Origin: an uncultured Anaerolineaceae bacterium
Lineage (GTDB): Bacteria; Chloroflexota; Anaerolineae; Anaerolineales; E44-bin32
Assembly (NCBI GenBank): GCA_964528155.1
Contig: CAZGRL010000003.1
Span: forward strand, 37,036 to 101,035
Length of the DNA stretch: 64,000 nucleotides
Direction: 5' to 3'
Of the stretch, positions 7,162 to 60,624 are shown in pieces (position 1 is the first letter of the stretch; every line of letters starts with the position of its first letter). Position numbers and translations under genes: made by a program. The notes below the pieces were generated by a model. The model saw only the letters and a list, made by a program, of their open reading frames with translations, did not search any database and was not told the DNA's origin.

Positions 7162-8451
7162 CTACTGCGACGGAACGCTCTGGCCCTCCATGCCCTCGAG
7201 AAGCTGAGGCAGGTACCAAACTTGCTGGTCGGTGGCCGTTTCACCATCCTGAAGATAGGCGGTGCCGTCCTGCAGATTGATCGGGCCGGTCCACAGATCC
7301 AGGCCGGACCCCAGTTCGCCGATGAACGTGTCCACGGTGGACGAGGCATCAGCGCTCAAACCCTGGCCCTTGGCGAATCCGACTGCCGAGGTGTCCGGGT
7401 TGTTGATGTCCGACCAATCCGGCGGGTTCCAGGCGAACTCCGATTGGAACGTGCCGTCCTGGACCGAATTGATGATCTTCAGGTAGCTTGGCCCCCAGTT
7501 GAAGTACGGCACGCCCAGACACACACTGGGTGCTTCGGCGCAGCCGTCCTTGTAGTCGTAGGAGACCGCCCATACCTGCTGGCCTTGGCCGGCATACTTG
7601 TTGGCCTCCGCCAGCGCCTCGGTGGTGTCAATGCCTGACACAACCACGTCGTAGCCGCTGTTGAAGAAATCATCCGCCACCTGAGTGGGGTCGGAGGTCA
7701 CACCAGGGATGTTGAACCAGAACCCAATCCAGGTCACCTTGAATTGCAGATCGGCGGCATCCTTATTCAGGTAGTTGGTCCAGCAGTACTTCGCACCCAG
7801 ATAGACCGAGGAGGCCAGGCGACGGGTCTCGTCGTTGATCAATGGACCCAGATAGCCGATCTGGCCCGTCTGCGTCGTCAGGGCAGCCGCACAGCCGGCG
7901 ATCATCTTGCCGTAAATCATCTTGCCCATCGTGTTGGTCATGTTCGGGAGGCCCTGGTAGTCCTTCCCGTCCGTCCATGCCTGATCGCCGGAGGCCATGA
8001 TCACCGGGACGTCGGGGTGATTCTGGGCGAACTCGTTGGCGCTGTCCTTCATGTCATCCGAACTGAAGTCGATAATCGTAGCGCCCTGAGACAGCAGGCT
8101 TTCAGCCAGTTGGGCCGGCGTCGTGCCGGGACGGTCAGCCGAGTTCGCTTTGTCGATGTATACGAACTCGAAGCCTGGCAGATTGTCGGCGACATATTGG
8201 GCACCGTCATAGTGCGCCTGGCTCCAGCCATGGTCGTTGTAAGGCCCGACCAGTAACAAACCAAGGACCGGCGGGGCCATCGTCGGTGCTTCGGTCGCCG
8301 GGGCTTCGGTCGCGGCAGCCGGTGGCTGCGTGGGCGCGGGAGCCTGGGTCGGTGGCGCTTGGGTCGGCGTCGCCGCCGGAGCGCAGGCCGCCGCAAGCAT
8401 CACCACGACGGCCGCCACAGCCAGCATGCGCCACATCTTGTTTTCGGGCAT
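7162..8451 (-). CDS. BMP-family ABC substrate-binding lipoprotein (purine nucleoside/nucleobase-type)
   Basis: Start moved to the ATG at 8451 (MPENKMWRML...), 6 nt after GGAGGAG. Signal peptide with lipobox LAAC, Pro/Thr/Ala-rich linker, then a BMP-like body (LLVGPYNDHGWSQ...). Confidence 0.85.
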   Translation of the reverse strand: MPENKMWRMLAVAAVVVMLAAACAPAATPTQAPPTQAPAPTQPPAAATEAPATEAPTMAPPVLGLLLVGPYNDHGWSQAHYDGAQYVADNLPGFEFVYIDKANSADRPGTTPAQLAESLLSQGATIIDFSSDDMKDSANEFAQNHPDVPVIMASGDQAWTDGKDYQGLPNMTNTMGKMIYGKMIAGCAAALTTQTGQIGYLGPLINDETRRLASSVYLGAKYCWTNYLNKDAADLQFKVTWIGFWFNIPGVTSDPTQVADDFFNSGYDVVVSGIDTTEALAEANKYAGQGQQVWAVSYDYKDGCAEAPSVCLGVPYFNWGPSYLKIINSVQDGTFQSEFAWNPPDWSDINNPDTSAVGFAKGQGLSADASSTVDTFIGELGSGLDLWTGPINLQDGTAYLQDGETATDQQVWYLPQLLEGMEGQSVPSQ

Positions 8452-8551
8452 TTCTAACTCCTCCATTAGTTTTCATTCATGATCATTATTCGGCTCAGGG
8501 ATCGGATCTCTACGGAGTGACCCACCTCCTTTCAGGATCGGATCAGGATGG

Positions 8552-9508
8552 TCAAGGGAGGATCCACGTTCCAGTCTCGCCGGCCAATGCCCGGCCGATG
8601 TTCTGCGGATCGGTGATCAGGGCCTCACGGCCGCCCCGCTCCAAGTACCCGATGATCGCCCGGACCTTGGGCTCCATCGATCCTTTGGCGAAGTGACCTT
8701 CGGCCAGATACTGCCTGGCTTCCGCCAGCGTCATCCGGTCCAGCCATCGTTGATCCGGCTTATTGTAGTTTAGAGCCACCTTTTCGACTGCCGTGGTGAT
8801 CAGGAACAAGTCGGCTTGAATGCTGGTGGCCATCAGCGCCGCGCCGAAGTCTTTGTCAATAACGGCCTCGACACCCACCAGGCCCCCGCTTTCGTCCTCA
8901 ACTACAGGGATACCCCCGCCGCCGTTACTGATGACAACGAAACCGGATCGGATGAGGGTCTCGATCGCGTCTCGCTCTACGATCCGCTTCGGTAGCGGCG
9001 ACGGGACGACCCTGCGCCAGCCCCGTCCGGCGTCTTCAACCACGGCCCAGCCGTCAGCCTGGCGGTGCTGGGAGGCCGTGGGCTCGTCCATGAAGGATCC
9101 GATCGGTTTACTCGGACTCTTGAAAGCCGGATCATCGCGATCGACCAGCGCCTGCGTGATAACCGTGGCGGCCTGCCTTTCCAGGCCGCGCTTGTGGAAC
9201 TCGTTGTAAAGCGCCTGCTGAAACATGTACCCGATCGCACCTTGCGTGTCGGCGCCGCAATAGTCGAGTGGAACCGGATGCAGTTCGTGGATCGCCAGCT
9301 CGGTGCGGCGCAAGATGAACCCCACCTGCGGCCCGTTGCCGTGCGTGATGACGACGTTCCACCCGGCCTCGATCATATCGGTGATCCGGGCCATCGACTC
9401 GACAGCCGCGGCGTACTGATCCGGCACGGTCCGATGGGCCTTGTCTTTGATCAGTGAATTGCCGCCCACGGCGACGACAGCGATCTTGCCTCCATTGGCA
9501 TGACTCAT
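8552..9508 (-). CDS. arcC: Carbamate kinase
   Basis: 318 aa. KIAVVAVGGNSL and ITHGNGPQVG motifs of the carbamate kinase / amino-acid kinase fold. Confidence 0.9.
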   Translation of the reverse strand: MSHANGGKIAVVAVGGNSLIKDKAHRTVPDQYAAAVESMARITDMIEAGWNVVITHGNGPQVGFILRRTELAIHELHPVPLDYCGADTQGAIGYMFQQALYNEFHKRGLERQAATVITQALVDRDDPAFKSPSKPIGSFMDEPTASQHRQADGWAVVEDAGRGWRRVVPSPLPKRIVERDAIETLIRSGFVVISNGGGGIPVVEDESGGLVGVEAVIDKDFGAALMATSIQADLFLITTAVEKVALNYNKPDQRWLDRMTLAEARQYLAEGHFAKGSMEPKVRAIIGYLERGGREALITDPQNIGRALAGETGTWILP

Positions 9509-9524
9509 TGACTCGGTCTCCTGC

Positions 9525-10505
9525 TCAGCGCATGGTCAGGGCCATGACGGCCTTCTGCACATGCATCCGGTTTTCCGCCTCATCGTAGACGACGCTCTGC
9601 GGGCCGTCGATCACCGCATTCGACACCTCGACCTCACGATCGGCCGGCAGAGGGTGCATGTAGATGGCGTCCGGTTTGGCCAGAGCCATCTTCCGTTCAT
9701 CGGTGATCCAGGATTCGTACTTCTTGATGATCCGAGCTCCCTCATCTTGATCCGTCGTCGTCAGCAGGGCCCCCCACGACTTGGCGTAAACGATGTCCGC
9801 ATCCTTGAAGCCGGCCTCCATGTCGTCGACGACCTCGAACCCTGCGCCGAACTTGGCCGCCTGGCGCCGGGCCTCTTCCATGACCCCGGGCATCAACTTG
9901 AATTCGGGGGGATGGGCCAGCACAACGTCCAGCCCGAAGCGCGGCATTTGCAGGATGAGCGACTGGGGCACAGAGATCGGCTTCTGATATGAAGCGGCAT
10001 AGGCCCACGACACAACCATCTTCTTCCGCCTCAAGTCGCGTCCCTTCTTCTCGACGATCGTCAGCAAGTCAGCCAGGATCTGGAAGGGGTGATAGATCTC
10101 GCATTGCATGTTCAGAACGGGCACCCGGCTGTGCCGGGCGACATCGTTCAGGTATTGGTTCCCCACTCCCCAATCGACATGTCGAATGGCGATCCCGTCG
10201 AAGTAGCGGCCGAAGATCTCGCCGATCTCTTTGGGCGTGTCTCCATGGGCGATCTGAGTGGTTTTCGCCTCGATGAACGCAGCATGCCCGCCGAGCTGGG
10301 CCATCCCCGCTTCGAAAGACCCGCGTGTGCGCGTGCTGCTGAAGAAGAACAGCATCGCCAGGACTTTGTCTCGCAGGTAGGGATGCGGTTCTCCCAGCGC
10401 CCGCTTGTGCTTGAGATCGAGGGCGACATCCAGAACAGTCTCAACCTCTTCCCGGCTGAAATCCAGGTCGCCGATTAGATCTCGCCCGCGTAAGTCGGTC
10501 TGCAT
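9525..10505 (-). CDS. Non-canonical carbamoyltransferase (OTC superfamily; AOTCase/SOTCase/YgeW-like signature)
   Basis: 326 aa. Carbamoyl-phosphate motifs SSTRTR and HPFQ are present. The OTC ornithine motif DxxxSMG is replaced by YAKSWG, and HCLP by HPLPADR. Confidence 0.8.
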   Translation of the reverse strand: MQTDLRGRDLIGDLDFSREEVETVLDVALDLKHKRALGEPHPYLRDKVLAMLFFFSSTRTRGSFEAGMAQLGGHAAFIEAKTTQIAHGDTPKEIGEIFGRYFDGIAIRHVDWGVGNQYLNDVARHSRVPVLNMQCEIYHPFQILADLLTIVEKKGRDLRRKKMVVSWAYAASYQKPISVPQSLILQMPRFGLDVVLAHPPEFKLMPGVMEEARRQAAKFGAGFEVVDDMEAGFKDADIVYAKSWGALLTTTDQDEGARIIKKYESWITDERKMALAKPDAIYMHPLPADREVEVSNAVIDGPQSVVYDEAENRMHVQKAVMALTMR

Positions 10506-10517
10506 CTGTCCTCCACG

Positions 10518-10587
10518 TTTAGCTGTCAGGCTTCAGCACTCAGCTTTCGGCCCTCAGCATTCAGCTCTCAGCTTTCTGTTGTCAATT
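10518..10587. repeat. Heptanucleotide tandem array, 10 units, consensus NTCAGCT (AGCTGAN on the coding strand)
   Basis: TTTAGCT GTCAGGC TTCAGCA CTCAGCT TTCGGCC CTCAGCA TTCAGCT CTCAGCT TTCTGTT GTCAATT. Ends 3 nt from the GGAGG of gene 9525-10505. Confidence 0.8.
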
Positions 10588-10644
10588 CGAGTGTTCGGTC
10601 TCCGGTCTCTTTGGTCGCAAACTTCAAGGCAGTCCCCCAATACT

Positions 10645-10714
10645 CTTAGCTTGTTGCTTATTGCTCATTGCTGATAGCTGTCAGCTATTAGCTGTCAGCT
10701 TTCAGTTGTCAGCT
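10645..10714. repeat. Heptanucleotide tandem array, 10 units, same consensus
   Basis: CTTAGCT TGTTGCT TATTGCT CATTGCT GATAGCT GTCAGCT ATTAGCT GTCAGCT TTCAGTT GTCAGCT. The last unit overlaps the stop codon at 10713-10715. Contains the palindrome ATAGCTGTCAGCTAT (10674-10688). Confidence 0.8.
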
Positions 10715-11666
10715 ATCCCTCCATCTTCCCCAGCACGAGCGCCAGAAGCGCCATCCGCATCACGACGCCGTTGAAGGCCTCGGCCCAGTAGCGCGCATGG
10801 CGGGTGTAATCGACCTCCTCCAGCAACTCGTCCATCCTGGGCAGCGAGTGAAGGATGAGCGAGTCGGGCTTGGCTTTGCGCATCAGGGCCTTGGTGACCT
10901 GATAGTTTGCCGGCGTCATGCCCACATCGCCCTTGCGCTCATCGCGCGACTTGGTGTAGTCCGGCTGAACGACAGGCTCCATGTACAGAACGTCGGCCTC
11001 GGCGATGGCCTGATCGACGTGTTCGATCTCGCGGTAGCGCAGGTTGAGATCATCCAGTTCCTTCTTAAACTCGTCCGTCAGGGACATCTCGGGCGGAGAA
11101 ACATACCTGGCCTGGATGTCGAACTGCGACATGGCGTAGCTGATCGAATGCATCGTCCGCATGCGCATGTCGCCGATGAGCAGGAAGGTCAAACCGTCCA
11201 GGCGACCCTTCTCCTTGAGGATGGTGTACATATCCGTCAAGACCTGGGTCGGATGCTCGCCCCATCCGTCGCCGCAGTTGATCACCGGCACGCTCGACCA
11301 GCGCGCCGCCTCAGCCGGTGCCCCCTGCTGGAAGTGACGCATGGCGATGACGTCGCCGTAGTACTCCAGCATGTGCACGGTGTCCTTGATCGACTCCTGG
11401 TAGAAGTCGCCGGCCCGGGTCATTTTGGCATCCGAGAAACCCGTCACATGGCCGCCCAGCCGATGCATTGCCGCCTCGGTCGCCAGGCGCGTCCGGGTAG
11501 ATGGCTGGTAGAAAGCCGTCACCAGCGTTTTGCTGGTCAACATGTCCGTATTGCGACGGTCGCGCGCGAACGGAGCGAGCTCATCCGCCACCTGGAAAAC
11601 CCTGAAGAACTCCTCTCGTTCGAATCCTTTGAGCGACAAGATGTCACGCCCTGCGAAACTTCTCAT
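10713..11666 (-). CDS. Aspartate carbamoyltransferase-like paralogue with an altered second-substrate motif
   Basis: 317 aa. STRTR, HPTQ and HSLPR are present. The ATCase Asp-binding R-x-Q-x-E-R region reads LYMEPVVQPDY, so the Arg is missing. Confidence 0.8.
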   Translation of the reverse strand: MRSFAGRDILSLKGFEREEFFRVFQVADELAPFARDRRNTDMLTSKTLVTAFYQPSTRTRLATEAAMHRLGGHVTGFSDAKMTRAGDFYQESIKDTVHMLEYYGDVIAMRHFQQGAPAEAARWSSVPVINCGDGWGEHPTQVLTDMYTILKEKGRLDGLTFLLIGDMRMRTMHSISYAMSQFDIQARYVSPPEMSLTDEFKKELDDLNLRYREIEHVDQAIAEADVLYMEPVVQPDYTKSRDERKGDVGMTPANYQVTKALMRKAKPDSLILHSLPRMDELLEEVDYTRHARYWAEAFNGVVMRMALLALVLGKMEG

Positions 11667-11757
11667 CTTTCTCTTTCTCCTTCATGGGATATGGAGTGTG
11701 TTTCTGTTCCAGCGCCGGATGATCGCCCGGCCTGATCGCGCCGCCACGCGCGTCGGA

Positions 11758-12510
11758 TCAACTGCGACGGCCCACTCGTCGAACGACATGGAAACGAAAC
11801 GTGCCCGGCAGGAAGAAGCTGTGCGAGTGATCGATCACACCGCCGTCCTCGGCGTACAAGAAAGCCTCAAAGCGCAACAACACATCACCGCGTTGAACCT
11901 TCAGCTTACGACCCACGTCGGCCGACGCCGGCACAGCCGTGATCTCGGACCTTGAGAGTCCGAGGGCCGGTGTCCCTTGCTTCAGCAGTAGATCGAGCAC
12001 TGAGCCGCGGAAGCCTTCCTCCAGAGCACTTTCCGAGACGACACCGTCAGGGACGACGTCTACCAGGTAGGCGACGGGCCGGCTATCGGCTTCGATGACC
12101 CGGGAGACATCGAGAACGATTGCCCCCGGAGACCCTCCGAACAGCTGTTGTTCCTCCGGGTCGGATGCTCGGCGATTGATGGTCAGGTCTCCCATTTCGA
12201 CCTCGAGACCAATACGCCCGGCCAGCGTCTCGATGCTCTCCAGCACTTCGAGCCCGGCATCGATGATCGGCAGTGGCCGGGCCACAACCGTCCCCACACC
12301 CTGGCGGCGAATGATCACGCCGCGCTCCTCGAAGGCACGCATCGCCTCGCGCAGCGTGGCGCGCGAGACGCCGAGCTCACGCGATAATGCTGGCTCCGAT
12401 GGCAGGAACGTGCCCGGTGAAGTATGAGCCAGGATGTTCTCCAGGGCCTCAGCCGTGCGCTGGTACAACGGGCTACCCTTTTCAGATCGCTCCCGTCGCG
12501 TCTGCCTCAT
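11758..12510 (-). CDS. GntR-family transcriptional regulator (HutC/UTRA-type)
   Basis: 250 aa. Winged HTH LPSEPALSRELGVSRATLREAMRAFEERGVI plus a roughly 150 aa effector domain. Confidence 0.85.
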   Translation of the reverse strand: MRQTRRERSEKGSPLYQRTAEALENILAHTSPGTFLPSEPALSRELGVSRATLREAMRAFEERGVIIRRQGVGTVVARPLPIIDAGLEVLESIETLAGRIGLEVEMGDLTINRRASDPEEQQLFGGSPGAIVLDVSRVIEADSRPVAYLVDVVPDGVVSESALEEGFRGSVLDLLLKQGTPALGLSRSEITAVPASADVGRKLKVQRGDVLLRFEAFLYAEDGGVIDHSHSFFLPGTFRFHVVRRVGRRS

Positions 12511-12526
12511 GCCGAATTCCTTCTGC

Positions 12527-14329
12527 TCATCCCAGGCTTTCTTCGAGAGGCACGATCGAATGCTGTGTGACGTCCACCAGGCCCTTGTCCGAGATGCGCA
12601 ACTCCGGGATCACCACCAAAGCCAGCAGACTGAGTTGCATGTTGGCGTTGTTCAACTCGCAGCCGCAATCTCGCAGGCCCGCCAGGATGCCCTCAGCCTT
12701 GTCGGCGACGACATCCGCTCGCTCGTCCGACATCAATCCGGCGATCGGAAGCTCGAGCAGGGCCTCAACCCTCCCTTCGCGCACCACGATCTGCCCGCCA
12801 CCGACTCTGGCCAATTCATTGGCCGCCATGGCCATTGAGGCTTCGTCCGTCCCGACCACGAGCATGTGATGTGAGTCGTGCGCGACGGTCGAGCCGGCGG
12901 CACACGGAACCTTCAGGCCAAAACCCTGGACAAAGCCCAATTGGATCGTCCCATTGCCTCGGTGCCTCTCGACAAGAGCCACCTTCGCCAGATCTCGGCT
13001 TGTGTCCGCTTTGAGCTCGCCGCAGTTCGGTTTGAGATCCATCTGGATGTGCCGCGTCGGGGCCTGGTTCTCAATGATTCCGATCACATTCGCTCGTACG
13101 GCATCCGAATCGGAAGCGTGGATCACGAAGTCGGACGGCTCCAGGGGCCGCTTGAGGTGCACCGAATCCTTGACGTCCGCTGGGAACTCGAAGTCAGGCA
13201 ACTCGATTTTCAGGCGGCCGGCCTCGGCGGCGAGCACGCCGCGAGCGATGACTTGCTCCGCTCGGAGGTTCGCCAAGTCGCTCACCAGGAGAATGTCGGC
13301 CCAACGCCCGGGCGCGATCTGTCCGACCTCGTCGGCGACCCCGAAGTGCTCTGCGGTGTTCAGCGTCGCCATCTGTATGGCCGTCATCGGCGTGATCCCT
13401 TGCTTGATGGCATGCCGAACCACACGGTCCATGTGACCGTCGTGCACCAGCGTCCCCGAGTGGCTGTCGTCAGTGACCAGCATGAAATGCCGCGAATCGA
13501 GACCGAGTTTCGTGATCGCCGGGGCTTGGGCGGCCACGTCGTACCAGGCCGATCCAAGACGCAGCATCGCCTTCATACCCTGTCGGACGCGCGCCACGGC
13601 ATCCTGCACACGCGTGCCTTCGTGGTCGTCGGCAGCCCCTCCGGCGGCGTATGCGTGGAACTCGAGCCCGAGATCCGGCGATGGATAGTGCCCACCAATG
13701 ACTTTGCCGGCCGCTTCGGTCGCTGCCATTTCGGCCAGAACCTGGTCGTCGTCCTGAACCACCCCGTGGAAGTTCATCATCTCTCCCAGCCCGATCACAC
13801 CGGGCCAGGCCAGCGCTTCGGCGATTTCAGCCGGACCGAGCACCGCTCCGGGTGTCTCGAGGCCCGGGCTCGAGGGCACACACGATGGCACCTCGACCCA
13901 CACGTGGATCGGTTGGAGCACGGCCTCGTCGTGCATCAATCGCACGCCCCTCAAGCCGAAGACGTTGGCGATCTCGTGAGGGTCGATGAACATCCCAGTC
14001 GTCCCGTGGGGCAGGACAGCGCGGACGAACTCGGTCACAGTGACCATACCCGACTCGACGTGCATATGTCCGTCGAGCAGTCCCGGGACCAGATAGCGGC
14101 CGCCGGCTTCGATGACTTGTGTTCCCTCACCAATCGTGTGACTCGCGTCTTCTCCGACGTAGGCGATCCGCCCTGCGCTCACGGCGACGTCCGTGTGCTC
14201 AATGATCTCGCCCGACTGCACACACACCCAACGACCATCGCGAATGACCAGATTGGCCGATTGACGGCCCATGGCGACATCGATCAATCGGCGCCTCAAC
14301 CCCTGTCGAGATTTCACGTCCATGGTCAC
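12527..14329 (-). CDS. ade: Adenine deaminase
   Basis: 600 aa amidohydrolase. LLDGHMHVESG metal motif and the two-domain length typical of Ade. Confidence 0.85.
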   Translation of the reverse strand: MTMDVKSRQGLRRRLIDVAMGRQSANLVIRDGRWVCVQSGEIIEHTDVAVSAGRIAYVGEDASHTIGEGTQVIEAGGRYLVPGLLDGHMHVESGMVTVTEFVRAVLPHGTTGMFIDPHEIANVFGLRGVRLMHDEAVLQPIHVWVEVPSCVPSSPGLETPGAVLGPAEIAEALAWPGVIGLGEMMNFHGVVQDDDQVLAEMAATEAAGKVIGGHYPSPDLGLEFHAYAAGGAADDHEGTRVQDAVARVRQGMKAMLRLGSAWYDVAAQAPAITKLGLDSRHFMLVTDDSHSGTLVHDGHMDRVVRHAIKQGITPMTAIQMATLNTAEHFGVADEVGQIAPGRWADILLVSDLANLRAEQVIARGVLAAEAGRLKIELPDFEFPADVKDSVHLKRPLEPSDFVIHASDSDAVRANVIGIIENQAPTRHIQMDLKPNCGELKADTSRDLAKVALVERHRGNGTIQLGFVQGFGLKVPCAAGSTVAHDSHHMLVVGTDEASMAMAANELARVGGGQIVVREGRVEALLELPIAGLMSDERADVVADKAEGILAGLRDCGCELNNANMQLSLLALVVIPELRISDKGLVDVTQHSIVPLEESLG

Positions 14330-14359
14330 CTCAGCCCTTGCTTCTCCCGGGCCTTCATC

Positions 14360-15736
14360 TCAGCCGTTCACCAACCGCATCGCTGCCCTGTTGTGCGCTT
14401 CGACCAATGCATCGTGGTCAAGGCTCACCAAGCGACCCTGTCTCACGACCGCATTTCCATGCACAAAATTGAAGTCGACGTCGCCCGGGTTGCAGAAAAC
14501 GGCAGCCGCGACCGGGTCATGCCGGGCACCCGCGAAACCGATCCGATCGAGGTCGATGGCGACGAAGTCGGCGCACTTCCCCGCTTCGAGTGAGCCCAGA
14601 TCGGTCCGCCCCAGAACCGCGGCGCCACCAAGAGTAGCGATTTCAAGGACCTCGCGAGCGCTGAGAAGATCCCCGGCTCCATGGACCTCAGGTGCAACCG
14701 GGACAGCCACCCTCGACAGCAGCATTGCTTGCCGCGCCTCGGCCAGCAAATGCGAGCTGTCATTGCTGGCCGATCCATCGACTCCCAGACCGATGTCCAC
14801 GCCCGCTTTCAGATAGCGTCGCACAGGGGCAATCCCGGACGCCAGACGCATGTTCGACGAAGGGCAATGTGCGACCCCGGTCCGAGCCGCCGCCATCCGC
14901 GCGACTTCATCGGGCAGAATGTGAACGGCGTGGGCGAACCAGACATCGTCGCCGGCCCAATCCAGACTCTCGACGAAAGCGAGGGGCCGCAGACCGAATT
15001 TCTCCAGGCAGAACGATTCCTCATCCAGAGTCTCGGCCAGATGTGTGTGCAGACGCACGTTGTATGCGCGGGCAAGCGAGGCCGCCTCGCGCATCAGCTC
15101 CGGCGTGACCGAAAATGGCGAGCATGGTGCGATGACCACCTGGACCATGGCGCCCGGCTTTGGATCATGGAATGCCTCGATCACCCGGCGGCAGTCTTTC
15201 AAGATCTCATCTTCGGATTCGACGACACGGTCGGGCGGTAGGCCTCCCTGGCTCTCACCCAGGCTCATCGAGCCGCGTGAAGCATGCAGGCGCAGGCCAA
15301 CCTCACCCGCAGCCTGGATCTCGTCATCCAACCGGCAATCGTTCGGGAAGATGTAGAGATGGTCGGATGCGGTCGTACAGCCCGAGAGCGCCAGCTCGGC
15401 CAGCCCAAGCTGCGTCGAAACGCGGACGTCATCTGCCCGCATCCTGGCCCAGATCGGGTACAGGGTCTTGAGCCAACGGAACAGGTCGGCGTCTTGAGCC
15501 TGCGGAATCACCCGTGTCAGGGTCTGATAGAGGTGATGGTGAGTGTTGATCAAGCCGGGGAGGAGCAGATGGCGAGAAAGATCGAGGACTTCGTCAGCGG
15601 TCTCGGGGAGTTCGTTCGTGGGGCCGACCTGGTCAATCCAGCCATCCCGGACGAAGAGCCCGCCATCACGGATCTCCCTGCGGCCGGCGTCCATCGTGAC
15701 CAGGCATTCGGCGTGACGTACCAGGAGCGTCGACAT
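14360..15736 (-). CDS. Amidohydrolase of the guanine/8-oxoguanine deaminase/SsnA group
   Basis: Start set at the internal ATG 15736 (MSTLLVRHAECLVTMD), preceded by GGAAGG. LINTHHHLYQT HxH motif and HLAETLDE. The track ORF extends to 15784. Confidence 0.8.
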   Translation of the reverse strand: MSTLLVRHAECLVTMDAGRREIRDGGLFVRDGWIDQVGPTNELPETADEVLDLSRHLLLPGLINTHHHLYQTLTRVIPQAQDADLFRWLKTLYPIWARMRADDVRVSTQLGLAELALSGCTTASDHLYIFPNDCRLDDEIQAAGEVGLRLHASRGSMSLGESQGGLPPDRVVESEDEILKDCRRVIEAFHDPKPGAMVQVVIAPCSPFSVTPELMREAASLARAYNVRLHTHLAETLDEESFCLEKFGLRPLAFVESLDWAGDDVWFAHAVHILPDEVARMAAARTGVAHCPSSNMRLASGIAPVRRYLKAGVDIGLGVDGSASNDSSHLLAEARQAMLLSRVAVPVAPEVHGAGDLLSAREVLEIATLGGAAVLGRTDLGSLEAGKCADFVAIDLDRIGFAGARHDPVAAAVFCNPGDVDFNFVHGNAVVRQGRLVSLDHDALVEAHNRAAMRLVNG

Positions 15737-15762
15737 GCCACCTTCCAGGGGATGCTGGGCCG

Positions 15763-15791
15763 AGTGTAACACTCCGACCGGCAAGCGTCAA
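15763..15791 (-). promoter_or_regulatory. Sigma-70-like promoter for the amidohydrolase-ade-gntR operon
   Basis: Minus strand reads TTGACG, a 17-nt spacer, then TACACT. The -10 element ends about 27 nt upstream of the ATG at 15736. Confidence 0.5.
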
Positions 15792-15802
15792 TTGTCAGAC
15801 AA
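15792..15802. promoter_or_regulatory. Palindrome TTGTCAGACAA abutting the -35; candidate GntR/HutC-type operator
   Basis: Arms TTGTC/GACAA are perfect inverted repeats. The GT-N-AC core resembles HutC-subfamily operators. The half-site TGTCAG recurs in the 10645-10714 array. Confidence 0.3.
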
Positions 15803-19250: not shown

Positions 19251-19647
19251 GGATGCTCAGAACAAACAAGAATGCGCGCGCCGGACCGAGGTCATTTTAG
19301 CAAAACCGGCTGGCTTTAGCCACCTTGCGCCCGTTCGGCTGATCGGAATACGCTTTGGATCGGATCTCATGTTATTCCGGGTTGCGCTTGATCTTCTCTG
19401 AAAGGCCGCAATAAGCTCTCGCATCACAACCATCCCCCATTCATGCAGGCCGAGCTCCCAATCCGGCAACTTGGAGCTCGAGCGCCCGGATCCCGAAGGG
19501 ATTGTACGATGTCCTGAGTGATTGGCGTATGGTCCGGCCGTCCTCCCCTCTGCCTGGCCGGTGAGTGACTCAGATTCCTGTCCTGAGAGCGATTGGCATG
19601 TGACGGGTGGATTGTCTCCCCCCGCTGCGACGGCGGGGGGCAACCGA

Positions 19648-20298
19648 CTAGCGTCGGCGCGTGGCGGCTAGAGGCTTACGGCTTGCGTGGCCGGTTTCGA
19701 AACGAGCAGTCGGATGGGGTACCTCGAGCGAGACGAAGTAGGCCTCACCGGCGCAAGCGCGACACAGAACACGCCCGTCGACCGCAACTTCTCTTCCATT
19801 GTTGATCTCTTCCACACATGCGTCGCAGGTCGAGCGTTTGCCAGGGTCGCTGATCAAGGCGGCCAAATCCAGGGTGAGCCTGACGGGTTCCACCGTCAGC
19901 AGCTCGTCATCCGGCATCACCTGGTAGGCAGCCAGTTGACGCTCCCACGGATCCATTATCTCCGGCGCGTACTCGACCGTTCGTGAGCGAGCGGCCGGGT
20001 GCGGCACGGTCCGAATCGCCCTACCGGATCGGCTGTCGACAAAGGTGGCGGCCACTTTGCCGTAGTCGACGATGAACATCGTTCTGCGCCCCACCCAACA
20101 GCCCGTGGCTACACCGATCCCATCTGCCGTGCAGCCTTCGGTCTCAACGAATGCAATCAGGTGCTTATCGGTCTGGGGCAGTTCGAACCCCAATTCCAGG
20201 CCGGCCCGGACCCCCATACGCACTCCCAGCACCTGGCGGGGGCACAGGTGCTGGTGCATCCGTGAGACCCTGTCGAAAAGCAAGCTCAGATCGGCCAT
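19648..20298 (-). CDS. FmdE-family protein with C-terminal zinc ribbon
   Basis: 216 aa. HLCPRQVLGVRMG and ETEGCTADGI motifs, with CDAC...CRAC at the C-terminus. Confidence 0.75.
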   Translation of the reverse strand: MADLSLLFDRVSRMHQHLCPRQVLGVRMGVRAGLELGFELPQTDKHLIAFVETEGCTADGIGVATGCWVGRRTMFIVDYGKVAATFVDSRSGRAIRTVPHPAARSRTVEYAPEIMDPWERQLAAYQVMPDDELLTVEPVRLTLDLAALISDPGKRSTCDACVEEINNGREVAVDGRVLCRACAGEAYFVSLEVPHPTARFETGHASRKPLAATRRR

Positions 20299-24840: not shown

Positions 24841-26127
24841 ATGAAGGCGTTCGCCATTGAAGGCGGCTATCCGCTGCAAGGTGATTTCACACCCTCGGGC
24901 AATAAGAACGCAGCTTTGCCTCTGCTGACCGCGTGTCTATTGACGGACGAGCCCGTGACCCTGCACAACATCCCGGAGATCGGCGATGTCCACATCATGC
25001 GCCAGCTTCTGGAAAGCCTCGGGGTGACGATCGAGCCGCTCGAACACGGCGTGTGGCGAGTCCAGGCAAGTGAGGTCCGCAAGGCCGATGTGGACCCGGA
25101 GCTCTGCCGTCAGATCCGGGCCTCGATCCTGCTCGCTGGACCGATGCTCGGACGTGCCGGGGGGATCGACCTGCCGCCACCCGGGGGTGACGTCATCGGT
25201 CGGCGAAGAGTAGACACCCATTTCTTGGCCCTCAGGGCCCTTGGCGCGGGCGTGGAGTACGCCGATCGCGCGTTCCACATCCACGCATCAGGCCGGATGC
25301 AGGGGACGAACATCTTGCTGGATGAAGCCAGCGTCACGGCCACCGAAAACGCCATTATGGCTGCGGTCACCGCCAAGGGTCGGACGGTGATCCGCAATGC
25401 CACATCCGAACCACACGTTCAGGATCTGTGTCTATTCCTGACGACCCTCGGGGCGCGTATCGACAACATCGGGTCGAACACATTGGTGATCGAGGGGATA
25501 GATCGGCTACACGGCGGGGAGTACACCATCGGTCCCGACTACCTGGAAGTGGTCAGCTTCATCGGAGCTGCCGCCGTGACCGGCGGCCGGATCCGGATCC
25601 ACCGGGCCGCGCCGGAGCATCTGGACATGATCCACCTAGTCTTCAGCCGGCTGGGCGTCACCTGGGATGTCGAGAATGGGGACGTCGTCGTTCCGGCGGA
25701 ACAATCGCTGGAAGTCGTGCCCGATGTTGGTGGTGCGGTCCCCGAGATACACGTAATGCCCTGGCCAGCATTCCCGACCGACTTGATGAGCATCGCCATC
25801 GTCCTGGCCACCCAGTCGCGCGGTACGGTCCTCTTCCACGATTGGATGTACCCCAGCCGGATGTTCTTCATCGACAAGCTGGTGAGCATGGGAGCCCGCA
25901 TAGTCCTGTGCGATCCGCACCGCTGTCTGGTTCAGGGGCCGAGCCGCCTCCTGGGGGAACACCTCGACAGCCCGGACATCCGCGCCGGCATGGCGCTCAT
26001 CCTGGCCGCACTCGGGGCGGAAGGCTCCTCCGTGATCCGCAACATCGGCCAGATCGAACGCGGCTACGAGCGCGTGGACGAGAAGCTGCGTCAGTTGGGC
26101 GCTCACATCGAGAGGCTCGAATCCTGA
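24841..26127 (+). CDS. murA: UDP-N-acetylglucosamine 1-carboxyvinyltransferase
   Basis: MKAFAIEGGYPLQGDFTPSGNKNAALPLL. The ATG at 24841 is preferred over the track TTG at 24835. Confidence 0.93.
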   Translation: MKAFAIEGGYPLQGDFTPSGNKNAALPLLTACLLTDEPVTLHNIPEIGDVHIMRQLLESLGVTIEPLEHGVWRVQASEVRKADVDPELCRQIRASILLAGPMLGRAGGIDLPPPGGDVIGRRRVDTHFLALRALGAGVEYADRAFHIHASGRMQGTNILLDEASVTATENAIMAAVTAKGRTVIRNATSEPHVQDLCLFLTTLGARIDNIGSNTLVIEGIDRLHGGEYTIGPDYLEVVSFIGAAAVTGGRIRIHRAAPEHLDMIHLVFSRLGVTWDVENGDVVVPAEQSLEVVPDVGGAVPEIHVMPWPAFPTDLMSIAIVLATQSRGTVLFHDWMYPSRMFFIDKLVSMGARIVLCDPHRCLVQGPSRLLGEHLDSPDIRAGMALILAALGAEGSSVIRNIGQIERGYERVDEKLRQLGAHIERLES

Positions 26128-26331
26128 GGCCAACAAGGAAGCATCAGGCCGTCCGCGCTCGCCTGGCGAGTCGACCCTCCCTTCTCCCCTGGCAGCTTGT
26201 CTCTTGCAGTGTCCGTCCCCCTCGAGCATCGACGACCGGCGGCCATCGAGCCTGCGAGTGAATCATCAGGACGTACGGTTTGCACCTCGAGCCCTGGACA
26301 CGTTGTACCGGGGCAGAGAGATGCCCCCACA

Positions 26332-30498: not shown

Positions 30499-31221
30499 AT
30501 GGGCACGATAAGAACGAGCCTTGAGGTGATCGCCCCTACGGTCGATGAAGCCGTGGCCCGTGGGGCCGCGGAGCTCGGACGTCCGGAGAGCGAGTTGGAG
30601 GTCGAAGTTCTTGACGAAGGCGGAAGAGGCGTCCTCGGATTGGGTGCTCGACAGGCCCGGGTGCGCCTGAGTGTGCGCTCGGCGACCGAGATGCAGCAAC
30701 CACAGCATGAAGTAACCGCGGAGGTGTCGGAGGACGACTCGCAGGCGCTCCAGGTCGCCATCGACACGGTTTCTGAGTTGCTGACCCGCATGGGTTTTGT
30801 CGCCAGAGCGACGGCACGCTGGGACGAAAACTCGGATCCCGATCAGATTCGCCCCCTGCATGTCGACATCCACGGCGACGACTTGAGCACACTCATCGGA
30901 CGGAAGGGTGAGACCCTGTCGGCCCTGCAATACATCACGCGCCTGATCGTTTCCAAAGAGCTGGACGGGCCGGTAGCCGTCGTGATCGACATCGAGGGCT
31001 ACCGGGCTCGACGAGAACAACAGCTGCGTCAACTGGCGCGCAAGATGGCCCAACAGGCTGAAGAGCGAGGCCGGACCATGACACTGGAGCCGATGCCCGC
31101 CAACGAACGACGCATCATTCATATCGAATTGCGAGATCATCCTTCCGTCTATACGGAGAGCACCGGCGAAGGCTCAGCTCGCAAGGTCACGATCATCCCT
31201 CGGACACCAGACACGCCCTGA
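30499..31221 (+). CDS. jag: Jag/KhpB RNA-binding protein (Jag_N, KH and R3H domains)
   Basis: 240 aa. IGRKGETLSALQYI (KH) and ERRIIHIEL (R3H). Sits after yidC. Confidence 0.85.
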   Translation: MGTIRTSLEVIAPTVDEAVARGAAELGRPESELEVEVLDEGGRGVLGLGARQARVRLSVRSATEMQQPQHEVTAEVSEDDSQALQVAIDTVSELLTRMGFVARATARWDENSDPDQIRPLHVDIHGDDLSTLIGRKGETLSALQYITRLIVSKELDGPVAVVIDIEGYRARREQQLRQLARKMAQQAEERGRTMTLEPMPANERRIIHIELRDHPSVYTESTGEGSARKVTIIPRTPDTP

Positions 31222-31256
31222 TTGGTCCGTCCCTATGCCTGGGCTATAATCGCCTC

Positions 31257-32108
31257 ATGCCCCACCCCTCCGTGCCCAGGGCGATCGACTACCTGATCAT
31301 CGGCCACCTCGCCCAGGATGGAGCGGGCGCCGCTTCGCGCTTGGGCGGGACCGCGGCCTACGCGGGTGTCACGGCCGCAGCGATGGGGCGGCAAGTGGGG
31401 CTCGTCACTTCAACGGCTCCCGGTCTCGACCTGGAGCCGTTGTCCGACATCGACCTGGCCAATTCCCCGGCACCGCGTCCGACCAGCTTCGAGAACCGCT
31501 ACGAGAGCGGCAGGCGACGGCAAAGGCTGAATTCCCTGGCAAACCCACTGGGTTTTGAAGACATCCCCGCGGCGTGGCAGCGATCTCCACTGGTGCATCT
31601 TGCGCCCATTGCCGGCGAGGTTGACCCCTCCCTCGCCCGGCGGTTCCCGAATTCGTTCGTGGGTATCACGGCCCAAGGTTGGCTGCGAGAGTGGGATCAT
31701 GAGGGGATCGTGTATGCTTCGTCCTTTGAGGCGATCAAAGATGTGCTGCATTCGGCGGACGCCGTCGTCGTCAGCCTAGAAGATCTCGTCGGCGACCGGC
31801 GGGAGGCCGAAGCCATGGCCGGTCATTGTCGTCTGCTGGCCATCACGGAAGGGGCTAAAGGCGCCACGGTCTTCCGCGAGGGTGAGGTGCGTCACATCCC
31901 GGCGCCGGCCTCCAACGAAGTCGATCCAACAGGGGCCGGCGACGTATTCGCCGCGGCATTCTTCATCCATCTCAGCCTCACCGGCGACCCCTGGCTGGCG
32001 GCCAGATTCGCCAACAGGATCGCCTCGGCCTCCGTCGCGGTTGAGGGCGTCGCCCCCATCGGCGAGCTGGTCGCCAATCTCGAAAGCCAAAGTCAGGCCG
32101 TCGAATGA
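31257..32108 (+). CDS. PfkB-family carbohydrate/nucleoside kinase
   Basis: 283 aa. C-terminal DPTGAGDVFAAAF motif. Confidence 0.8.
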   Translation: MPHPSVPRAIDYLIIGHLAQDGAGAASRLGGTAAYAGVTAAAMGRQVGLVTSTAPGLDLEPLSDIDLANSPAPRPTSFENRYESGRRRQRLNSLANPLGFEDIPAAWQRSPLVHLAPIAGEVDPSLARRFPNSFVGITAQGWLREWDHEGIVYASSFEAIKDVLHSADAVVVSLEDLVGDRREAEAMAGHCRLLAITEGAKGATVFREGEVRHIPAPASNEVDPTGAGDVFAAAFFIHLSLTGDPWLAARFANRIASASVAVEGVAPIGELVANLESQSQAVE

Positions 32109-48108: not shown

Positions 48109-48220
48109 GGTAGGTTGATGGTGTTGGTGATCATGACGGAAGACCGGGGACGGGGGACGGGACAAGCCGGCGGGGCACCGAAGGATGGTTATCCGGTCGT
48201 CGGTCCCCGGTCGTCGGTCA
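48109..48220. repeat. Heptanucleotide-periodic tract of 16 units in one phase
   Basis: GGTAGGT TGATGGT GTTGGTG ATCATGA CGGAAGA CCGGGGA CGGGGGA CGGGACA ... CCGGTCG TCGGTCC CCGGTCG TCGGTCA. Confidence 0.7.
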
Positions 48221-48261
48221 TGGCTGGGCTCGCCCAAGTCACAATCTAGCGAGAGGCAAAC

Positions 48262-59445: not shown

Positions 59446-60416
59446 AGAGCCTCCGCCGACGTCTGTTGGCCGGGCTGATCTTCGGCTTCGTCGTGATCCT
59501 CGGCCTGACATTGCTCGGCGATGTCCGCCAGGTTGCGCAACACCTGGCGGCGTTTTCTTGGCAGCTGACGCCCCTCATCCTGGCCTGTACCCTTTTCAAC
59601 TACCTGCTGAGGTTCATCAAGTGGCACTTCTATCTCGGCCAGGTCGGTGTGCATGATCTTCCCGTGGTTGAGAGTGCCAGATTGTTCGTCGGCGGTTTCC
59701 CTCTGGCGGTCACCCCCGGCAAGGTGGGCGAGGCGCTCAAGGGCGTTTGGCTGAACCAGCGGGCCGGGATCCCTGTGGCCCGCGCCGTCCCGGTCGTCGT
59801 AGCCGAGCGGATCAGCGACGGCCTGGCCGTGACGGCGCTTTCGACGCTTGGCGTCATCGCCTACCCGCGTTACTGGCCGGCCTTCGTCAGCGTGCTAACG
59901 CTGCTGATCGCCGGCGTGATCCTCACCCAGATCCGCCCTCTGGCCTTGGCACTCATCGGGCTAGTCGAACGCATGCCGTTGGCGGGGCGAGCGACCGGAC
60001 ACCTGCGCGAGTTCTACGAGGGAACCTATAGTCTGTTCCGGCCGAAGGCGACCGTGGCAGCAGTGTCGCTGGGGACAGTCGCCTGGCTCGGGGAGGGCAT
60101 CGGCTTCTATATCATCTTGCGCGGACTTGGCGTTCCGGCTTCGTGGCAGACGCTGTCGATCGCGGTTTTCGTGCTGGCCTTTTCAACGATCGTGGGAGCC
60201 GTGTCGACCCTCCCCGGCGGGCTGGGCGCAGCCGAAGCCAGCATCGCCGGCATGCTCACGCTGCTCCTCACCCTTCCCGCCGGCATCCCGGCCGCGGCAA
60301 CACTGTTGATTCGATTCGCCACCCTGTGGTTCGGGGTCTCCCTCGGCCTGGGCGTGTGGGCGGTGTCAAGCGATTTACTGCTCTCAATGGGGGAGGTGGC
60401 GAAGAGTGATGCGTAA
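59442..60416 (+). CDS. Flippase-like / lysyl-PG-synthase TM-region family (UPF0104) membrane protein
   Basis: The ATG at 59442 overlaps the DUF362 stop (ATGA). MKSLRRRLLAGLIFGF..., PGKVGEALK. 8 TM helices. The track ORF from 58596 is an over-extension. Confidence 0.75.
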   Translation: MKSLRRRLLAGLIFGFVVILGLTLLGDVRQVAQHLAAFSWQLTPLILACTLFNYLLRFIKWHFYLGQVGVHDLPVVESARLFVGGFPLAVTPGKVGEALKGVWLNQRAGIPVARAVPVVVAERISDGLAVTALSTLGVIAYPRYWPAFVSVLTLLIAGVILTQIRPLALALIGLVERMPLAGRATGHLREFYEGTYSLFRPKATVAAVSLGTVAWLGEGIGFYIILRGLGVPASWQTLSIAVFVLAFSTIVGAVSTLPGGLGAAEASIAGMLTLLLTLPAGIPAAATLLIRFATLWFGVSLGLGVWAVSSDLLLSMGEVAKSDA

Positions 60417-60494
60417 AGCGCGAGTCTGAAACGTGATGCGTGAAACGTGAAGAGCAAGACGTAAAACGTATTGCGTAAAACGTAATGCTCAATG
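60411..60494. repeat. Heptanucleotide tandem array, 12 units, consensus CGTRAAR
   Basis: GCGTAAA GCGCGAG TCTGAAA CGTGATG CGTGAAA CGTGAAG AGCAAGA CGTAAAA CGTATTG CGTAAAA CGTAATG CTCAATG. The first unit contains the stop codon of the upstream gene. Confidence 0.8.
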
Positions 60495-60561
60495 GAGTGG
60501 CGAGGATCGATACAGGCTCTACCGAATCGGCGGAGCACACTACTCCTCCAGCAGATCACCC

Positions 60562-60589
60562 TTAGTGTTTTCACGTTTTACGTTTTACG
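60562..60589. repeat. Inverted block of the same heptamers, 4 units
   Basis: TTAGTGT TTTCACG TTTTACG TTTTACG, the reverse complement of CGTAAAA CGTAAAA CGTGAAA ACACTAA. Confidence 0.75.
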
Positions 60590-60624
60590 ATCCGCAACGT
60601 CCATGACATGAACCCCAAGATCCA

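Follow-up and report, generated by a model that had tools for sequence, protein, structure and literature searches.

Among the periodic repeats of intergenic DNA in prokaryotes, tandem heptamers are reported to be the most abundant, and they have no known function (PMC6344855). Arrays of this kind are over-represented between the genes of many prokaryotes (cited in PMC4692102; PMC6344855), and simple sequence repeats (SSRs) with a heptameric unit are over-represented in many bacterial genomes, for which polymerase slippage has been put forward as a hypothesis (Mrazek 2007, as cited in PMC4692102). Here we describe a 209-nt spacer (positions 10506-10714) that carries two heptamer arrays and separates two carbamoyltransferase genes in an uncultured Anaerolineaceae bacterium; it lies in a stretch of 64,000 nt, hereafter the window, from contig CAZGRL010000003.1 of assembly GCA_964528155.1. 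The spacer belongs to the known, unexplained class of intergenic heptanucleotide repeats, its lineage and unit sequences being new, and it is one of a class of modules found throughout this genome and its lineage, in which a heptamer array is followed by a short non-repetitive core and a second array.

In Xanthomonas, GGGAATC heptamers form convergent pairs, overlap stop codons, follow a strand rule and diverge rapidly (Rehm et al. 2015; PMC4692102). The purine-rich form of the Xanthomonas and Nostoc heptamers is found on the coding strand where it directly follows a stop codon or overlaps it, and on the non-coding strand where it immediately precedes a start codon, and the arrays are about twice as common between convergent as between divergent genes (PMC4692102). 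The arrays described here resemble the Xanthomonas GGGAATC and Nostoc GGGGA(C/T)T repeats in being degenerate 7-nt tandem arrays at many intergenic sites, frequently as inverted pairs, in their proximity to stop codons, in their rarity between divergent genes and in varying in length and sequence between close relatives, but differ in unit sequence and in their Chloroflexota host; neither GGGAATC nor GGGGATT ever occurs in tandem in this genome. Because the units here are mostly not G-tracts, a G-quadruplex explanation does not carry over to them. TAACTGA arrays have been described in Beggiatoaceae, cyanobacteria and Bacteroidetes, with a patchy distribution across phyla (MacGregor 2015; PMC4679880). 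Like these, the present arrays are intergenic heptamers of patchy phylum distribution whose forward units carry stop codons, and one unit, TAGCTGA, is only one base away. The TAACTGA repeats sit mainly just 5' of start codons over the ribosome-binding site, whereas here the arrays more often abut stop codons and the gene downstream of the spacer retains a normal GGAGG. Heptamers known as STRR, for short tandemly repeated repetitive, have been described in the heterocystous cyanobacteria Calothrix and Anabaena (cited in PMC4692102). Common to STRR and the present arrays is that families of tandem heptanucleotides are scattered over the non-coding DNA and that one genome has several types of unit; the present arrays are more degenerate, and their host is not a cyanobacterium. 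The consensus units of STRR1-3 are CCCCAGT, TTGGTCA and CAACAGT. None of the three is ever found in tandem in this genome, and the relatives are Anaerolineae/Chloroflexota, by which identity with STRR in the strict sense was rejected; the original prediction had seen a likeness in form and not in sequence, and this was borne out. It had also taken the feature as one not known to be described for this kind of genome, which needs a qualification for intergenic heptamers as such, already described in many prokaryotes; as regards the lineage it stood, no literature report of heptamer repeats in Chloroflexota or Anaerolineae having been found. None of the published heptamer units was present in tandem in this genome.

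The REP (repetitive extragenic palindromic), BIME and REPIN elements of enterobacteria and pseudomonads are imperfect palindromes of 20-40 nt tied to RAYT transposases; REP elements are transcribed and can stabilise the upstream mRNA. They resemble the present arrays as abundant extragenic elements that often form inverted pairs at gene 3' ends and occur inside operons. Identity with them was rejected, as the units here are 7-nt tandem copies and no convincing RAYT was present, a search of the genome giving one weak Y1_Tnp match (42 bits) in a 518-aa frame. The Coxiella burnetii intervening sequence (IVS) carries an S23p open reading frame (ORF), has a 28-bp terminal stem, is cleaved by RNase III and contains GACAGAT heptamers that vary between strains (PMC4990558). 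The same arrangement, an S23p four-helix-bundle gene between complementary arms, was found in three cassettes of this genome, whereas the spacer has no ORF and lies between protein genes rather than in rRNA. This genome thus adds a new lineage and a new unit set to the long-unexplained heptamer repeats, together with three regularities, namely a strand-symmetric purine-then-pyrimidine order, conserved cores of 3-5 nt with variable flanks within the units, and an association with S23p genes; the last is very strong and makes an old descriptive puzzle testable.

Heptamer arrays between the carbamoyltransferase genes

Both genes are on the minus strand and encode proteins with the Pfam domains OTCace_N and OTCace, in agreement with the original prediction of two co-oriented carbamoyltransferase genes. 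The upstream gene (10713-11666) is aspartate-carbamoyltransferase-like (TIGR00670, 242 bits against a cutoff of 237), and the downstream gene (9525-10505), which is followed by a carbamate kinase gene, is ornithine-carbamoyltransferase-like, its best NCBIfam matches being ornithine carbamoyltransferase families of which every one scored under its cutoff. On the mRNA strand, the spacer consists of a 5' array (10645-10714) of 10 units (AGCTGAC, AACTGAA, AGCTGAC, AGCTAAT, AGCTGAC, AGCTATC, AGCAATG, AGCAATA, AGCAACA and AGCTAAG), a non-periodic core of 57 nt (10588-10644) that gave no lag-7 signal, and a 3' array (10518-10587) that opens with two weak units (AATTGAC and AACAGAA) and continues with eight good ones (AGCTGAG, AGCTGAA, TGCTGAG, GGCCGAA, AGCTGAG, TGCTGAA, GCCTGAC and AGCTAAA).

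The lag-7 identity of the whole spacer was 0.54 (z 8.6), a value reached by none of 1000 dinucleotide shuffles, and the same was true of each array alone. Values for the 5' array were 0.73 at lag 7 (z 7.4), Tandem Repeats Finder (TRF) giving periods of 7 and 14; those for the 3' array were 0.62 at lag 7 and 0.71 at lag 14, TRF again giving periods of 7 and 14, the latter with a score of 62. In the 5' array there is hardly any change at A-G-C, the variation being at the four remaining positions (column conservation 1.0/0.9/1.0/0.7/0.6/0.6/0.4); the 3' array keeps GCTGA next to two variable positions and contains a 14-nt higher-order repeat. The two arrays are 1 nt out of register. As predicted, the stop codon of the upstream gene (TAG, 10713-10715) falls inside the first heptamer unit, and the other array ends just short of the Shine-Dalgarno sequence of the downstream gene (GGAGG, 10510-10514, read directly from the sequence), which is located 4 nt 5' of the ATG (10503-10505). 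Since the upstream protein ends in GKMEG*, one Gly more than the GAME* or GKME* of its relatives, the stop codon is supplied by the array.

The core had been described as unique. This is so for the most part, blastn giving elsewhere in the genome only a 14-nt GGTCTCC repeat; however, it carries two copies of CGGTCTC (10596-10609), which is a unit of another heptamer family and recurs at many other loci. A miniature inverted-repeat transposable element (MITE) with a conserved core was ruled out, the core being unique except for this heptamer dimer. No promoter or intrinsic terminator was predicted on the mRNA strand of the spacer, and Rfam at gathering thresholds revealed no family within the whole 64-kb window.

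It had further been proposed that TGTCAG half-sites in the units match the palindrome TTGTCAGACAA (15792-15802), which has no second copy in the genome and is located upstream of the operon encoding a GntR/HutC regulator, and that the arrays are thereby linked to GntR. This did not hold. The TGTCAG hexamer occurs 1722 times in the genome, 29 of the 92 genome copies of GCTGTCAGC fall in heptamer arrays at unrelated loci, and the same units recur both within the genome, where some 90 unrelated spacers contain them, and outside it, in 24 of the 41 relatives. The likeness of the spacer to TTGTCAGACAA is a by-product of the genome-wide unit; the palindrome itself is possibly a genuine operator but bears no relation to the heptamer arrays. 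The spacer as a GntR/HutC operator was rejected on the genome- and phylum-wide occurrence of the units and on its intercistronic site, at which no promoter is predicted. Neither the GntR regulator nor the function of the carbamoyltransferases is specifically connected with it, and for annotation such spacers should not be taken for operators of a neighbouring regulator. The suggested phase variation driven by slippage fared no better: exact neighbouring copies of a unit are rare, and as the array sits between two cistrons, from stop codon to ribosome-binding site, no reading frame can be switched by gaining or losing units. A phase-variable contingency SSR was accordingly rejected, exact tandem copies being rare and the site being neither in an ORF nor in a promoter.

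Heptamer modules throughout the genome

The genome-wide scan for 7-nt periodicity that had been proposed with the original prediction was carried out on the assembly (4.72 Mb, 285 contigs, 61% G+C) as a lag-k window scan. It revealed 176 arrays at lag 7, of which 159 were intergenic according to a crude in-house gene call, versus 1-6 arrays at each of the control lags 5, 8, 10, 11 and 13. Period 7 is thus specifically over-represented genome-wide and nearly confined to non-coding DNA. TRF gave 320 rows of period 7 versus 128 of period 8 and 127 of period 11. The arrays make up 0.18% of the genome and form about a hundred modules, with the same units recurring in about 90 unrelated spacers. Four unit families were recognised: xxxxAGC/GCTxxxx (e.g. 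AGCTGAC, AGCAATA and GCTGANN), CGTGAAA/CGTAAAA, CAAGAC/CAGGAC and GACGGxG/GACCGGA. Within an array, some columns are almost invariant and others near-random, the mean sorted column conservation falling from 0.98 to 0.46, and this unevenness exceeds that of permuted mismatches in 86% of the arrays. The units differ at 2-4 fixed positions and are nearly invariant at 3-5, exact neighbouring copies being rare. It was also noticed that several contigs end in heptamer arrays (e.g. C183:1-46, C140:6-36, C165:63-89 and C113:275-307), from which it follows that arrays break short-read assemblies and that their true number is underestimated.

In the usual module, a purine-rich array is followed by a short core and then by an array rich in pyrimidines. 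Transitions between adjacent arrays were purine-then-pyrimidine in 16 cases versus 1 in the reverse order, and 41 of 52 purine-rich arrays lay in the left half of the spacer and 50 of 63 pyrimidine-rich ones in the right half (Fisher p 3e-10). This purine-5'/pyrimidine-3' rule is strand-symmetric and independent of gene orientation. Among spacers of >= 60 nt, modules were present in 4.2% of the tandem, 6.2% of the convergent and 1.8% of the divergent ones, and 35% of the arrays adjoining the 3' end of a gene begin <=5 nt from the stop codon; it is common for a module to adjoin a stop codon or to provide it. Folding against shuffles gave a median z of -1.9 for spacers with arrays and of -0.2 for those without (p 0.011), and about half of the module-holding spacers fold as long imperfect hairpins. 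We also considered the arrays as pads of stop codons in all frames, which is only partly true: in the purine-rich orientation, 29 of 115 arrays close all three frames, versus 2 of 115 control segments, and 36 of the 115 are without any stop codon. The two arrays of the carbamoyltransferase spacer are predicted to pair at -43.4 kcal/mol versus -17.7 +/- 4.3 kcal/mol for shuffled sequences (z -6), and they can pair over almost their whole length because AGCT is self-complementary.

S23p genes between heptamer arms

All three genes for PF05635 (S23p, the 23S-rRNA-intervening-sequence protein) in this genome lie within purine-then-pyrimidine modules built from the local unit vocabulary. On contig C44, a gene on the minus strand (19352-19735) is located between a left arm of AGCAATA-type units (19295-19335) and a right arm of CTTATTG-type units (19735-19805); on C16, a plus-strand gene (30936-31394) lies between arms of GACGG-type (30863-30896) and CCGTC-type (31558-31598); and on C5, a degraded gene is enclosed by arms of AAAACGT-type (25601-25655) and ACGTTTT-type (about 26280-26325). 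The arms of the C44, C16 and C5 cassettes are predicted to pair at -40, -59.5 and -34.5 kcal/mol, respectively, with z of about -6. Examination of 20 PF05635 genes in 18 genomes of relatives revealed complementary arrays on both sides of 15, on one side of 3 and on neither side of 2. As a base rate, 0.5% of the genes in this genome have arrays on both sides, and an array is present in 2.8% of 280-nt windows taken from the relatives' loci. The arms of the S23p genes have the same layout and unit vocabulary as the gene-less modules, and the layout is that of protein-coding 23S rRNA intervening sequences. No literature linking PF05635 to heptamer arrays in general was found.

Two observations connect these cassettes with gene-less modules. 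The inner units of the 5' array of the spacer (AGCAATG AGCAATA AGCAA..) and the arm of the C44 cassette are identical at 33 of 37 nt. The C44 cassette itself lies between two NuoM paralogues. At this site G000, G001 and G014 carry an S23p cassette, G010 and G002 have a heptamer module that encloses no gene, and G003, G028, G030 and G031 have a short empty spacer. An rnc gene is present in the genome at C6:7336-7986.

The same site and the same units in relatives

The relatives compared are metagenome-assembled genomes (MAGs) of Anaerolineae/Chloroflexota. In G001, of the same genus, the upstream protein is 94% identical and the syntenic DNA 75-82% identical, and the spacer consists of AGCAATA x4, an unrelated core of 120 nt and (GCTAATT GCTAACT) x3, the 3' array having, with respect to the ribosome-binding site, the phase of its counterpart in the window. 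The G001 spacer being orthologous and in the same phase, the module is older than the divergence of the two genomes, and its units have since been remodelled one at a time. Other relatives have a heptamer module of different units at this site, five other unit types in all, among them TCAGCnn...GCTGAnn in G014 (L002), L005 and G010, GATCAGG...CCTGATC in G004 (L001), GTGACAn...nTGTCAC in G003 and GGTGATC...GATCACC in G012. The spacer is 4-12 nt long in L014, L015, L019, L025, L027 and L028 and about 30 nt in L006, and what appear by eye to be GC-rich hairpins occupy it in L003, L007, L020 and L024. Modules turn over quickly between relatives, and their presence varies even between congeners, as a second module of the window (48132-48223) has no array at the syntenic spacer of G001. 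Of 41 relatives, 24 contain the pattern GCTGANN x4, as do 28 of the 301 genomes drawn from across the phylum; the reversed pattern, used as control, was absent from nearly all genomes, although a few in the phylum sample match it, one of them heavily.

Nature and origin of the spacer

Taken together, the spacer is probably a gene-less heptamer-arm module, neutral or selfish, which may influence how the RNA between the cistrons folds or is processed by RNase III. The module would have entered, or grown within, a once short spacer separating two cistrons that were translationally close, overwriting the original stop codon and leaving the downstream ribosome-binding site intact. It would then have been kept up by duplication and loss at the level of units, to which the 14-nt higher-order repeats point. 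Presumably co-transcribed with the operon, its arrays may pair into a stem of 4-5-bp helices broken by internal loops, and this stem could serve as an RNase III substrate or as an intercistronic structure that uncouples the two genes.

Several findings weigh against this interpretation. A module persists at the carbamoyltransferase site across several genera, and local selection rather than neutrality is therefore possible. The spacer belongs to a minority type, with both arrays purine-rich on the mRNA strand, and the minimum-energy fold of the whole spacer is no better than that of shuffles (z -1.3). Its core resembles S23p neither in DNA nor in protein sequence, by which a remnant of an S23p gene was rejected, and the descent of the spacer from a gene-carrying cassette is for this reason unsupported. 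Furthermore, G010 has many arrays and no detectable S23p gene, and array-rich relatives of this kind imply that the protein is not needed for arrays to persist.

A far wider proposal, which we put forward tentatively and regard as doubtful, is that the bacterial intergenic heptamers, including those of STRR, Xanthomonas, Beggiatoaceae and Anaerolineae, act in cis as the arms of a single, widespread selfish element of the IVS type. When complete, this element would hold an S23p gene, coding for an Avd-like four-helix bundle, in the stem of inverted 7-nt arrays, and spacers like the present one would be gene-less, MITE-like derivatives cut from polycistronic transcripts by RNase III; the 5+2 pattern of the units would then correspond to 5-bp helices and 2-nt internal loops.

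The arrays might instead be passive microsatellites, long simple sequence repeats that are made by slippage and tolerated in non-coding DNA, with S23p genes inserting into, or being retained in, hairpins that already existed. Such an origin would account for the block duplications shown by the 14-nt higher-order repeats here and in G001, for the variation in presence and unit number between relatives and for arrays in genomes without an S23p match, and a 7-nt unit is favoured by polymerase slippage according to the earlier hypothesis cited in PMC4692102. We nevertheless consider it unlikely, since exact neighbouring copies are rare and the variable and invariant positions are fixed, the same four vocabularies recur at about 90 loci, the purine-then-pyrimidine polarity and the inverted pairing would not be expected from slippage alone, and the association with S23p genes is 3/3 in this genome and 15/20 in relatives. 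A lower probability still is given to a REP-like RNA element selected locally between the cistrons as a processing site, stabiliser, attenuator or translational uncoupler. The absence of a predicted promoter or terminator from the mRNA strand suits it, as do the structured spacers at the same site in many relatives, with heptamers in six of them (G001, G014, G010, G003, G012 and G004) and apparent GC-rich hairpins, by eye, in four, and the z of -2.5 to -4 with which most of the heptamer spacers tested fold. Yet the six relatives with only 4-12 nt at the site indicate that no structure is required, the spacer of the window folds no better than shuffles, and the same modules are found in about 90 unrelated spacers.

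The conserved core of 3-5 nt with variable flanks in each unit does resemble a series of repeated binding sites, and one cold-shock protein per heptamer has been discussed for the TAACTGA repeats (PMC4679880). That the spacer is a platform for protein binding, whether as tandem sites for GntR/HutC or for a general protein that binds single strands and covers 7 nt, for example one with a cold-shock domain, is nevertheless very improbable: GntR is contradicted by the 1722 copies of TGTCAG, by units that are genome- and phylum-wide and by a spacer not at a promoter, and a general binder by four unrelated unit families in both orientations. Least credible of all is an artefact, with the repeat collapsed or chimeric in a bin assembled from short metagenomic reads. 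Arrays stand at the ends of many contigs, and an independent 1.9-kb JGI contig encoding an identical upstream protein breaks 13 nt into this very array; but that contig shares the first two units exactly, comparable arrays occur within large contigs and in single-contig genomes of relatives, and the G001 spacer is orthologous. An exact-protein look-up for the downstream carbamoyltransferase gave no other contig, and metagenome contigs scanned for an exact 26-nt word of the core gave no match. The exact unit number at the spacer may be imprecise because the assembly is in 285 contigs.

Neighbouring genes and other arrays

On the minus strand, the spacer is preceded by genes for an 8-oxoguanine-deaminase-like amidohydrolase, an adenine deaminase, the GntR/HutC regulator and the aspartate-carbamoyltransferase-like protein, in this order, and followed by those for the ornithine-carbamoyltransferase-like protein, carbamate kinase and a BMP-family ABC transporter. 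The gene set at 7162-15784 looks like a cluster for purine catabolism and for conversion of carbamoyl phosphate to ATP.

Two more modules are present in the window. The one at 48132-48223 consists of a GACGG-type array (48132-48166) and a complementary CCGGTC-type array (48192-48223) and adjoins a 28-bp hairpin element. The other, at 60411-60597, has CGTRAAA units, a core and inverted GTTTTAC units, and is predicted to fold as a long hairpin (-63.8 kcal/mol, z -2.9); its CGTRAAA arrays begin near a stop codon. Elsewhere in the genome, many spacers of contig C8 at ~46-72 kb contain GACGG/CCGTC arrays, and seven genes of this stretch have an array on either side. They are ordinary genes located between modules, with the pyrimidine-rich arm on the left and the purine-rich arm on the right, opposite to the S23p genes.

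Inverted TCAGCnn/GCTGAnn arrays of the same unit family were also seen at 2597-2686 of L043, which is from a MAG labelled Phycisphaerales and thus placed in another phylum; these could reflect horizontal spread, convergence or a binning error. In two single-contig Chloroflexota genomes of 1.7-1.8 Mb (G215:C1 and G170:C1; loci L098-L117), GCTGANN arrays of 4-5 units occur inside a larger dispersed repeat, the conserved flanks of which include ...cccgtttcggtcatt... and the hairpin gtcattgcgagcc...gaagcaatc. This dispersed repeat looks like a composite MITE-like element.

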